NCBI GenBank assembly: GCA_934271715.1
Contig: CAKQRZ010000004.1
Location: 11,651-75,650, forward strand
From: an uncultured Alphaproteobacteria bacterium
GTDB taxonomy: Bacteria > Pseudomonadota > Alphaproteobacteria > RF32 > CAG-239
Length of the DNA: 64,000 bases
Direction of reading: 5' to 3'
In this document: one piece after another, positions 15,156-16,028 of the stretch
How positions within the stretch are numbered: position 1 is the first letter of the stretch
Layout: each line of letters begins with the position of its first letter
Made by a program: the position numbers and the translations under genes
The notes under the pieces: model-generated
What the model saw: the letters and a program-made list of their open reading frames with translations, nothing else
Databases searched by the model: none
What the model was told of the DNA's origin: nothing

Positions 15156-16028
15156 TTATATGTTGTCCATTTCCCAAACCAAAATACAATTTTCTTTTTT
15201 AACCGAACAGGAATTACAAATATTTTGCATTTCTGCTAACGTAGCCTCGTTTAGGCATTTTTTTTCGGAATCTCCGCAATATTTATCGCCATAATAACCA
15301 TAACCGGCGGATTTATTTTTCCATAAACCGGCATAATATAATGAGCTATGCAGAGGTTTAAGCAAGTTGTTGAACAGTTCAAAGCAAAGTTTGTTGGAAA
15401 AAGTTTGGATAATTTTATAGCCGCTGCTATCGTCAGTTGCACCAAGCTGCAAGTCAAAAGTAAGATGTTTACTTCTAACAAAAGTATAAGCAAAATTACC
15501 GGCAGAATCTCTGACTCCTTGTTTACCGGCAACTTTCCAACCGGCAGGCAAAAGATTCAGTTCTTGAATTGTTTCGGCTAAATAATATCGCTCCTGATAT
15601 TCGCCCTCTACACGCAAAGGTGAAAAATTATCCATATGCTCCATTAGTCCAAACATCAGAGAAGTATATTCTTCAACTAGCTTGTTGACTTTGAACTTTT
15701 CCATCGCTTTGGAATATCCGGCAATACCTCCGACAGATAGAACGCCGACAATCGCCAATACACCCAGCATTTCTATCATTGACCGACCGACAGAGCAAAC
15801 GTCATACTTATCGCCACATCCTGCAGGCTGTGGCAGACGAGTATCCATGACTTTGTTGCCAACGGCAACACATATTGACATTGCTTTAGCAATGTCAATA
15901 TGGATTCTCCGCCCTAGTACTTCCAGCAGGGAGTACCGGCGAAGAATGACGCTGAAAGTGACGGCGGAAAAGCGTGGAAACGTACCGCATGCAAGCTTAT
16001 TTTTAACATTTTCAAAATTCTTATACAT
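15156..16028 (-). CDS. type IV pilin / pseudopilin-like protein (paralogue 2) with a ~70-aa in-frame insertion in the leader
   Basis: Start MYKNFENVKNK uses the same RBS (GGAGTTAGAAA) as paralogue 3. A 208-bp insertion is followed by GRSMIEMLGVLAIVGVLSVGGIAGYSKAMEKFK. The true start may lie downstream. Confidence 0.6.
   Translation of the reverse strand: MYKNFENVKNKLACGTFPRFSAVTFSVILRRYSLLEVLGRRIHIDIAKAMSICVAVGNKVMDTRLPQPAGCGDKYDVCSVGRSMIEMLGVLAIVGVLSVGGIAGYSKAMEKFKVNKLVEEYTSLMFGLMEHMDNFSPLRVEGEYQERYYLAETIQELNLLPAGWKVAGKQGVRDSAGNFAYTFVRSKHLTFDLQLGATDDSSGYKIIQTFSNKLCFELFNNLLKPLHSSLYYAGLWKNKSAGYGYYGDKYCGDSEKKCLNEATLAEMQNICNSCSVKKENCILVWEMDNI

Follow-up and report, generated by a model that had tools for sequence, protein, structure and literature searches.

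A 73-codon in-frame block of repeat DNA in the predicted leader of a pilin-like gene from a gut alphaproteobacterium

We analysed a stretch of 64,000 nucleotides from an uncultured alphaproteobacterium (contig CAKQRZ010000004.1 of assembly GCA_934271715.1, positions 11,651 to 75,650; hereafter the window) and focused on the second of its five pilin-like genes. This gene, paralogue 2, lies on the minus strand and runs from an ATG at 16028 to a stop codon at 15158-15156. Between the start codon (16026-16028, minus strand; MYKNFE...) and the predicted cleavage site it carries an in-frame insertion of 219 bp, or 73 codons (15790-16008, minus strand), which is recognised both from an empty and a filled orthologous site and from comparison with paralogue 3. 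The explanation that we consider probable, judging from sequence, is that the block would be a translated leader extension made of repeat DNA, unconstrained in its own sequence and removed at G/RSMIE. The insert is one case of a lineage-wide packing of repeat DNA into the leader in gut Alphaproteobacteria.

The paralogues were found by a six-frame search of the window for the motif G/RSMIEMLGVLAI, with anchors at 12066 (-), 15779 (-), 38652 (-), 59870 (+) and 61134 (-). Paralogues 2 and 3 have the ribosome-binding site and opening codons in common (AAACGGAGTTAGAAAtATGTATAAgAATTTtGAAAA, first six codons), as an earlier sequence-only reading of this DNA had stated, and about 295 nt upstream of the two genes are 81% identical. 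Paralogue 3 (38038-38682, minus strand) has an 8-aa leader, MYKNLEKG, behind the same 5' untranslated region (5'UTR) RNA (38909-38717) and the same start codon, and represents the empty-site state. The ATG of 'MIEML' lies 249 nt (83 codons) from the start codon in paralogue 2 and 30 nt (10 codons) from it in paralogue 3; the indel is the difference, 219 nt or 73 codons (16008-15790), an exact multiple of three. The sequence-only reading had described a stop-free, in-frame insert of about 70 residues and 208 bp at 15789-15996. The frame and its openness held, the size came to 73 codons, and the length and position were replaced by those given here. Its caution that the boundaries were approximate was justified, and the puzzle of a length that is not a multiple of three came from those approximate borders. 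It had also rightly likened the 3' end to paralogues 1 and 4: the junction GACGTTTGCTCTGTCGGTCGGTCA (..DVCSVG/RS; 15780-15803, minus strand) is common to their long leaders, with 92% identity over 26 nt to paralogue 1 and 85% to paralogue 4.

With the insert, the leader of paralogue 2 is 81 aa long and ends at Gly81, with Arg82 next. It is hydrophilic, with 12 K/R vs 6 D/E and a net charge of +6. Its frame contains no stops, the other leader frames hold 1 and 8, and a stop-free outcome was obtained in just 3.8% of dinucleotide shuffles of 75 leader codons. An antisense open reading frame (ORF) of 167 aa (15682-16185, plus strand) spans the entire insert, so that the antisense frame is also stop-free; as a real gene it was rejected, and we treated it as a spurious by-product of palindromy.

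A naturally empty site was present at locus L046, which is orthologous to the window: the proteins encoded upstream are 99% (p571), 97% (p131) and 95% (p57) identical in amino acid sequence. In 5'UTR variant and mature allele this locus matches the filled locus L002, yet it is without the block. It reads ...TTTTGAAAA-A-GGTCGTTCC-ATG (GAAAA-A-GGTCGTTCC), whereas L002 and the window read ...TTTTGAAAA-[TGTT...CTGTC]-GGTCGGTCA-ATG, a clean difference of +219 nt. Neither a target-site duplication nor a direct repeat was found between the empty site of L046 and the filled site of L002. The comparison shows that the block is a discrete, dispensable indel, and the two alleles constitute a natural near-isogenic pair for experiments.

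The insert was also present in independent assemblies, at 100% identity in L001, 97% in L002 and L003, and 94% in L008 (a Hadza metagenome-assembled genome, MAG), and the insert-bearing locus with the same upstream genes recurs in independent human-gut assemblies. Because of this recurrence, the insert is not an assembly artefact. Comparison of orthologous loci, which the sequence-only reading had proposed, gave presence of the block at these four loci and its clean absence at L046. The possibility raised there, that the insert is ubiquitous in orthologues as ordinary coding sequence, was half borne out: several orthologues carry the block, one is without it, and it evolves unlike coding DNA.

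Further loci were collected independently of gene calling: metagenome contigs were probed with a DNA stretch that is invariant in the shared 5'UTR. In 34 loci a conserved Shine-Dalgarno sequence (GGAG or GGAGG, 8-9 nt before the ATG; GGAG at 16037-16040, minus strand, in paralogue 2) and ATG were accompanied by a pilin anchor, and the start codon of paralogue 2 is common to paralogue 3 and the short-leader alleles. The distance from ATG to anchor was 30 nt in 23 loci, 33 nt in three, and 42, 72, 96, 111, 138, 237, 249 (five loci) or 459 nt in the others. Every one of these distances was divisible by three and stop-free (34/34), with inserts ranging from 3 to 429 nt; with approximately eight different lengths among the insert-bearing leaders, about (1/3)^8 would be expected by chance. 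Inserts at the shared site differ from one another among lineages, and therefore the same few codons have been hit repeatedly.

As a second probe, a 20-mer inside the right-hand module of the block (a-right, described below) was run against one genome per species and returned 15 copies, 11 of them in a single MAG, many at contig ends. Such a distribution is the signature of a repeat. The search for other copies suggested by the sequence-only reading thus had a mixed outcome, as no second copy of the insert was found in the 64-kb window and related copies were found elsewhere. In the multi-copy MAG, 10/11 matches lay within pilin leaders, all in one orientation. Twelve of the 13 copies linked to a pilin motif were in frame and stop-free to the cleavage site, through up to about 160 further codons, and the remaining copy (L010) had a frameshift at a G5 run. 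Upstream of the cleavage site, frame 0 was open for a median of 54 codons over 60 distinct anchors, vs 5 and 12 codons in the other two frames.

The insert and the mature part of the gene differed in how they evolve. Among nine copies of the insert, variable columns were distributed 13:14:17 by codon position, and since they show no codon periodicity the insert peptide as such is not under selection. For the mature N-terminus (61 sequences), variability was 0.084, 0.086 and 0.41 by codon position, about fivefold at position 3. When the window was compared with L002 or L008, identity was 92-100% across the leader and then fell to 74% and <50% exactly at the cleavage junction, and in P0004 and P0005 the mature allele of the window (97-98%) follows a leader of another class. 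Because of this break and the displaced allele, the leader would belong to the expression site and the mature cassettes would move, which fits a picture of leaders as fixed expression sites with pilin heads that behave as exchangeable cassettes.

The insertion lies directly before a motif that resembles the end of a class III signal peptide, G(-1)/R S M I E(+5) (15771-15788, minus strand), after which cleavage is predicted; the putative mature pilin-like protein comprises 209 aa plus stop (15156-15785, minus strand). Gly(-1) was present in 118/118 homologous proteins and 60/60 DNA anchors, Glu(+5), E86, was invariant, and a hydrophobic stretch (RSMIEMLGVLAIVGVLSVGG) and a set of conserved Cys residues characterise the family. 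AlphaFold2, with a 63-sequence alignment, assigned residues 1-82 a predicted local distance difference test score (pLDDT) of <50, followed by a 47-residue helix (83-129) and a confident head with pLDDT >90. In the related contig L028, a homologous gene has a gene for a small PF01478 Peptidase_A24 protein (61.4 bits) 2 kb away.

Prepilins have an N-in bitopic topology, and their cleavage after Gly takes place on the cytoplasmic side; characterised class III leaders measure 6-26 aa, or up to about 30 aa in type IVb (PMC4471445). By analogy, a longer cytoplasmic N-terminus is mechanistically plausible for a prepilin. The protein shares with class III signal peptides the final invariant Gly, Glu at +5, a hydrophobic alpha1N helix, a hydrophilic leader of net positive charge and an A24 peptidase in the lineage. 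It differs in the length of the leader (81 aa here and 186-269 aa in called relatives, vs 6-26 or about 15-30 in type IVb), in its +1 residue, which is Arg and not Phe or Met, and in belonging to a pilin-like family below curated hidden Markov model (HMM) thresholds. Paralogues 3 and 5, with 8 and 7 aa, have leaders as short as the characterised ones; paralogue 2 does not.

The block itself is a mosaic of at least three pieces. From the 5' end these are a 30-nt linker, 'NVKNKLACGT' (15981-16010, minus strand), homologous by pairwise alignment and protein comparison to the tail (..RVRGNSKPAGGT) of another module in the L053 leader; module a-left (15871-15980, minus strand), comprising FPRFSAVTFS and hairpins H1 (15949-15902) and H2 (15902-15871); and module a-right (15798-15872, minus strand), comprising hairpins H3 (15870-15854) and H4 (15846-15803) and ending in AAGTATGACGTT. 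The two halves are separable, as BLAST of the leader against all copies showed. Other leaders contain a-left with or without a-right, a-right stands alone in L005, L007, L010, L011, L013 and L015, and in L016 both are present with another module nested between them. From ..KPAGGT to ..KYDVCSVG, the leader of another expression site (L053, P0027-type) can be aligned with the block over its whole length. An imperfect 10-nt inverted repeat, CGTCATTCTT/AAGTATGACG (90%; 15800-15809 / 15942-15951), lies inside the indel, 58 nt from its left border and 10 nt from its right.

Folding of the leader RNA gave -92.9 kcal/mol (z = -5.4), and none of 200 shuffles folded as well. The perfect hairpins noted from the sequence alone are real: H2 is a perfect 15+15 nt palindrome at 15871-15902, and GTTGCC-aac-GGCAAC lies at 15855-15869, one base from where it had been placed. 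H2 is imperfect in all other copies, and the perfect palindrome is lineage-specific and derived. Most copies have CATAACGCC as the 5' arm, L008 and L009 have CATAACGTC, L002 has CATAATGTC and the window has CATATTGAC. Eight other copies represent the imperfect ancestral form; relative to it, the 5' arm has undergone four substitutions, each of them toward complementarity, and the 3' arm is unchanged. This stepwise perfecting looks like either templated quasi-palindrome correction or selection for a stronger stem. The notion that all leader inserts are hairpin-rich was false, as z fell below -3 in only 2/6 tested leaders.

Other origins of the insert were considered and rejected. Vector contamination was suspected from AAGCTTGCATGC and CCTGCAGG, the former presumably matching the HindIII-SphI start of the pUC polylinker; homologues read AAGCTTGCACGC (L008) and AAACCTGCAGGC (L053), and the block occurs in four independent assemblies. 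A phage origin found no support from the 20-mer, which had no match in viral contigs. For a self-splicing intron, ribozyme or known RNA, Rfam gave no match at gathering threshold, and 15600-16400 had only chance-level miRNA matches.

If these features are taken together as a repeat-derived, cleaved leader, ribosomes would start at the MYKNFE codon, and the 73 additional codons would yield an unstructured cytoplasmic extension of net positive charge. The hydrophobic helix would then enter the membrane as in any prepilin, N-in and bitopic, and an A24 prepilin peptidase would cut after Gly81 and discard the entire leader. Because the whole leader would be discarded, selection would police only frame and stops. 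Recombination with the leader of a second pilin expression site, and not transposition of a unit element, would have brought the block here, with the right crossover in the conserved junction or the region encoding the N-terminal helix and an illegitimate left junction. We favour copying from another leader because the block aligns with the L053 leader and the inverted repeat lies inside its borders. The hairpins would be a property of the repeat family, H2 having been perfected here by templated correction or selection.

Several observations weigh against this explanation. Our case for translation and cleavage is drawn from sequence statistics only, and starts in database proteins are the choices of gene callers. 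At 81 aa the leader is about three times as long as the longest one characterised. The 'pilin' label reflects the motif and a predicted architecture: the family had no Pfam or NCBIfam match (TIGR02532 scored 9.4 bits vs a cut-off of 16.3), Foldseek of the head domain against the PDB returned no match, and neither pilus machinery nor a prepilin peptidase was found in the window. Broken leaders exist (the L010 frameshift, and a TAG plus a deletion in L052), as does an orphan leader (L050), and some of these copies may be dead. Insert identity between strains was 94-97% vs about 83-91% for most flanking DNA, and 7/56 predicted hairpin pairs showed compensatory change, from two or three sequences only; conservation and compensation together hint at function or concerted evolution and not at a pure passenger. 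Finally, other leader inserts are not all structured, with z = +1.6, +1.05, -1.1, -1.8 and -3.9 for five others.

Selection on insert structure is possible, and the alternative that takes up this point is that the hairpin array is a functional cis-acting RNA or single-stranded DNA element in a translated leader, the open frame being a side constraint. Its role could lie in tuning translation or mRNA stability after the 5'UTR switch, in binding a regulator, or in marking the junction for recombination during the exchange of pilin cassettes. We regard this as somewhat unlikely. In its favour are the low z of the leader fold, the high identity of the insert relative to its flanks, compensatory changes in H1, H3 and H4 in L012, L017 and L018, an orientation relative to the gene that was constant in 13/13 pilin-linked copies, the four 5'-arm substitutions that perfected H2, and a break in synteny exactly at the leader-to-mature junction. 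Set against this are the naturally empty site, the short and empty state of most riboswitch-anchored sites, and the unstructured inserts at the same site. Covariation came from two or three sequences and 49/56 pairs never show any, while a covariance model (R1) run over 436 kb of loci returned no divergent copies, only close relatives plus one edge copy in L033. Concerted evolution among copies could also account for the conservation. The sequence-only reading had offered a translated regulatory leader as one option; conservation at the nucleotide level and a few compensatory hairpin changes speak for it, the empty site and the unstructured other inserts against it.

An unlikely alternative is that the block is an autonomous-like miniature inverted-repeat transposable element (MITE) or repetitive extragenic palindrome (REP) element that transposed as a unit and was mobilised in trans by a transposase or a REP-associated tyrosine transposase (RAYT). 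The imperfect 10-nt repeats CGTCATTCTT...AAGTATGACG would be its termini, the multiple matches in one MAG and the polymorphism between L046 and L002 would reflect its mobility, and the missing target-site duplication would fit mobilisation of the IS200/IS605 or RAYT type. Copies are also found apart from pilin genes, intergenic in L012, twice in tandem at the same site in L051 and upstream of a secreted protein in L015, and another module (d) is intergenic and in both orientations in L007. However, the borders of the indel do not coincide with the inverted repeats: on the left the indel takes in 58 nt of another module and on the right the CSVG junction. The two halves of the putative element occur independently, 10/11 copies in the multi-copy MAG are in pilin leaders and share a single orientation, and neither the rest of the 64-kb window nor viral contigs contained a copy. 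No transposase turned up, though no systematic search for one was made. Of the options in the sequence-only reading, a miniature insertion element tolerated in a cleaved leader came closest: the block is dispensable, in frame, made of multi-copy modules and not conserved as protein, and what seems not to hold is transposition as a unit, given the mosaic structure and the lack of a target-site duplication.

That the start is mis-assigned and the insert an untranslated 5'UTR structure, with translation from near the cleavage site, appears very improbable. An in-frame ATG does lie 22 codons before the cleavage site (MDTRLPQP...), and the insert evolves unlike coding DNA. This internal ATG has no Shine-Dalgarno sequence, as is true of any start near the cleavage site, and the conserved Shine-Dalgarno sequence and ATG upstream are the sole possible start in short-leader alleles. 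A downstream start, which had been the third option of the sequence-only reading, was rejected because frames were open from that conserved start in 34/34 loci, against a chance expectation of about (1/3)^8 for eight lengths, and because the median open stretch was 54 codons in the gene frame vs 5 and 12; a (CT)n frame switch in another leader class, described below, argues likewise. Equally hard to credit is a functional pro-domain (chaperone, regulatory or targeting) in the 73 residues, since the motif VILRRYSLLEVP.RRIHN.IAKAMSICVA.GNKVMDTRLPQPAGCGDKYDV does recur at 85-95% identity in many proteins but the segment has no third-position bias, a pLDDT <50 and no Pfam or NCBIfam match, varies in presence within one allele, and consists of modules that have been reshuffled, divided or nested and that occur in non-coding DNA as well.

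The generality of long leaders was assessed by a HMMER scan of cluster representatives (50% identity) with the mature domain alone as query, which gave 4093 representatives at E <= 1e-3 and 140 at E <= 1e-30. In the 141 best representatives with a match starting at Gly, called leaders were bimodal in length, 45 being <= 12 aa and 86 (61%) >30 aa, with a median of 50 and a maximum of 186. Family leaders are rich in Arg and Pro and consist of recurring pieces: LLR.ARND., KILGTRP.MTG.RG, KYPSPDAKASPSP.RGEG, VILGLVPRI., DTRVKPEDD and VVRQYAALLERRVQ. By analogy, these pieces read like translated REP-type palindromes; DTRVKPEDD and LLR.ARND we take to be familiar translations of REP-type repeats. 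When the insert peptide by itself was used as a protein query, the only matches were 10 short ORFs: broken leaders, orphan leaders and intergenic tandem copies. Gene-caller starts across the family (4093 clusters) are inconsistent, and many annotated 'hypothetical proteins' are leader fragments.

In the MKNKL.KG class of leaders, a (CT)n tract follows codon 8, next to the far-upstream ATG. With n = 6 or 12 this ATG is in frame with the pilin (database proteins P0036, P0038 and P0138); with n = 7, found in five loci (L013, L018, L021, L037 and L053; e.g. L053 1309-1385), it is out of frame, yet no stop interrupts the frame between tract and pilin over up to 217 codons (L013). The tract is probably a slipped-strand phase switch inside a long leader. 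Because such a switch is meaningful only if ribosomes read the whole leader, it suggests that long leaders are translated from their 5' end.

Modules were also observed outside pilin genes. L012 (6136-6289) and L051 (880-1190) have one vs two tandem divergent a-type copies at the same intergenic site, by a gene for a Toluene_X outer-membrane protein, and in the L012/L051 copy the H1 and H4 stems are compensatorily changed relative to leader copies. An intergenic region of L007 (2100-2265) holds module d (..YPSP.AKA.PSP.RGEG) twice, as inverted copies, immediately before a small gene that presumably encodes a DUF559-type endonuclease; module d, at least, is thus a general dispersed repeat. In L015, an unrelated Cys-rich repeat protein has a-right and a second module (7035-7158, minus strand) in frame immediately before its Sec-type signal peptide (MSILAFLCLFATAAEA), where the contig ends. 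Orphan leaders (L050 313-612, P0123, P0125 and P0126) consist of an invertible-promoter repeat, a start codon, module a, a 23-aa tail (SELGCKKYRSQLNETGTTSQRLG) and a stop, without a pilin domain downstream, and are kept in at least three protein clusters.

Upstream of paralogue 2 lie a putative sigma-70-like promoter, TTTACT-N17-TAAAAT (16270-16298, minus strand), read from the sequence and kept upstream of the RNA in 28 loci, and a structured 5'UTR RNA (16062-16262, minus strand). The latter comprises a P0 hairpin (16262-16243), a multi-stem core, the invariant CGTTGGACGGATGTCGGCT (16168-16150) and a terminator-like hairpin with a U-tract (16089-16062), about 35 nt before the Shine-Dalgarno sequence. 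The RNA, of about 200 nt, is shared by paralogues 2 and 3 (38717-38909, minus strand) and loci L020-L049, has a minimum free energy z of -5.8, and was seen only upstream of these pilin-like genes. Its architecture includes a conserved P0 loop, (G/A)ATAG, two long closing helices and three inner hairpins with invariant loops and joints. An alignment of 28 sequences contained 60 pairs, 21 of them with compensatory changes, and 98.2% of cells were paired; double-change cells numbered 201 vs 61+-7 in shuffles (0/500) and 12-29 in slid controls. An alternative pairing could form between GGACGGAUGU and the invariant ACAUCCGCCC next to the terminator. Rfam 15 contained no matching family, and we regard the RNA as a candidate new riboswitch or attenuator.

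Paralogue 1 (11458-12165, minus strand) has a 31-aa leader with the 'LLRVARNDVCSAG' module, and paralogue 4 (59771-60472, plus strand) a 31-aa leader of the same module type. Directly upstream of each, 24-nt inverted repeats (AAGTGTGTAAAAAAAACGACCGTT) flank a segment of 133-134 nt containing a promoter-like TTGCAA-N17-GATATT that points at the gene; the three copies in the window lie at 12179-12361, 43817-44006 and 59577-59757. The third, upstream of an Acyl_transf_3 gene (44016-45182), is in the opposite orientation, as is that of the L050 orphan leader. A tyrosine recombinase of the Phage_integrase family (196 aa; 39362-39952, plus strand), FimB/FimE-sized, adjoins paralogue 3. The flanked segments look like fim-type invertible promoters, and no inversion at one and the same locus was seen. 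Paralogue 5 (60532-61161, minus strand), with the 7-aa leader MKNNQIG, adjoins a gene for an 839-aa autotransporter (PF03797; 61464-63983, minus strand). The pilin-like genes stand singly among housekeeping genes (SecA, UvrA, PPDK, Rho, SerRS).

A literature search for long prepilin leaders, in-frame repeats in signal peptides and a pilin-associated riboswitch in gut Alphaproteobacteria found nothing relevant. The closest precedent, by analogy, would be the Rickettsia palindromic elements (RPEs), palindromic MITE-like repeats that occur in frame in protein-coding genes of an alphaproteobacterium (PMC10969869). Both systems involve hairpin repeat DNA of about 100-150 bp in ORFs, in frame and stop-free, with a tolerated peptide, several families and an alphaproteobacterial host; the likeness is one of description. 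RPEs, however, are found in many unrelated genes and are kept in the mature protein, whereas the insertions here occur almost entirely at one position, in the predicted-cleaved leader of one gene family. The modules here also build up mosaics that reach about 190 called codons, and their spread looks recombinational.

The mosaic organisation recalls REP clusters, or bacterial interspersed mosaic elements (BIMEs). These are short imperfect palindromes in mosaic clusters, mobilised by RAYT, extragenic by definition and usually 3' of genes. Imperfect palindromes in variable mosaics without target-site duplication are common to both, and some modules here are intergenic too (module d in L007), but the block of paralogue 2 is intragenic, 5' in its gene and under reading-frame constraint. 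Known sites of phase or antigenic variation in pilins include fim-type invertible promoters, slipped-strand repeats and pilE/pilS cassette exchange in Neisseria. The genes described here resemble them in having several paralogues at scattered positions whose 5' end is conserved and whose heads vary, a cassette break at a conserved junction, inverted-repeat-flanked promoters near a 196-aa tyrosine recombinase and a (CT)n tract in one leader class; they differ in that inversion and slippage are read from sequence patterns. To our knowledge, no fim-type, slipped-strand or pilE/pilS system uses or tolerates long repeat-derived leader peptides. What differs here is the target, the cleavable leader of one very large family, and the scale, beyond 6-30 aa, with a spread that appears to be recombinational.

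A broader and tentative reading, to which we give a rather low probability, is that the mosaic leaders have been selected for as part of a novel type of pilin expression site, with the hairpin modules as cis elements. The modules could serve as recombination signals at the G/RSMIE junction or as RNA that gates translation after the riboswitch-like 5'UTR, and, together with invertible promoters and (CT)n slippage, they could diversify a very large family of surface proteins in gut Alphaproteobacteria. If so, A24 peptidases would be able to process leaders of 80-270 residues.

If the repeat-derived, cleaved leader is the correct explanation, class III signal peptides would carry cytoplasmic leaders of 80-190 residues or more, compared with the 6-30 studied. 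The leader would be a sanctuary for repeat DNA under a pure constraint to keep the frame open, and would offer a natural experiment on selfish or recombinogenic DNA inside genes that complements the RPEs of Rickettsia. The by-products of the analysis, a strongly covarying 5'UTR RNA with a terminator and signs of promoter inversion and slippage, concern bacteria that are uncultured but common in the gut.

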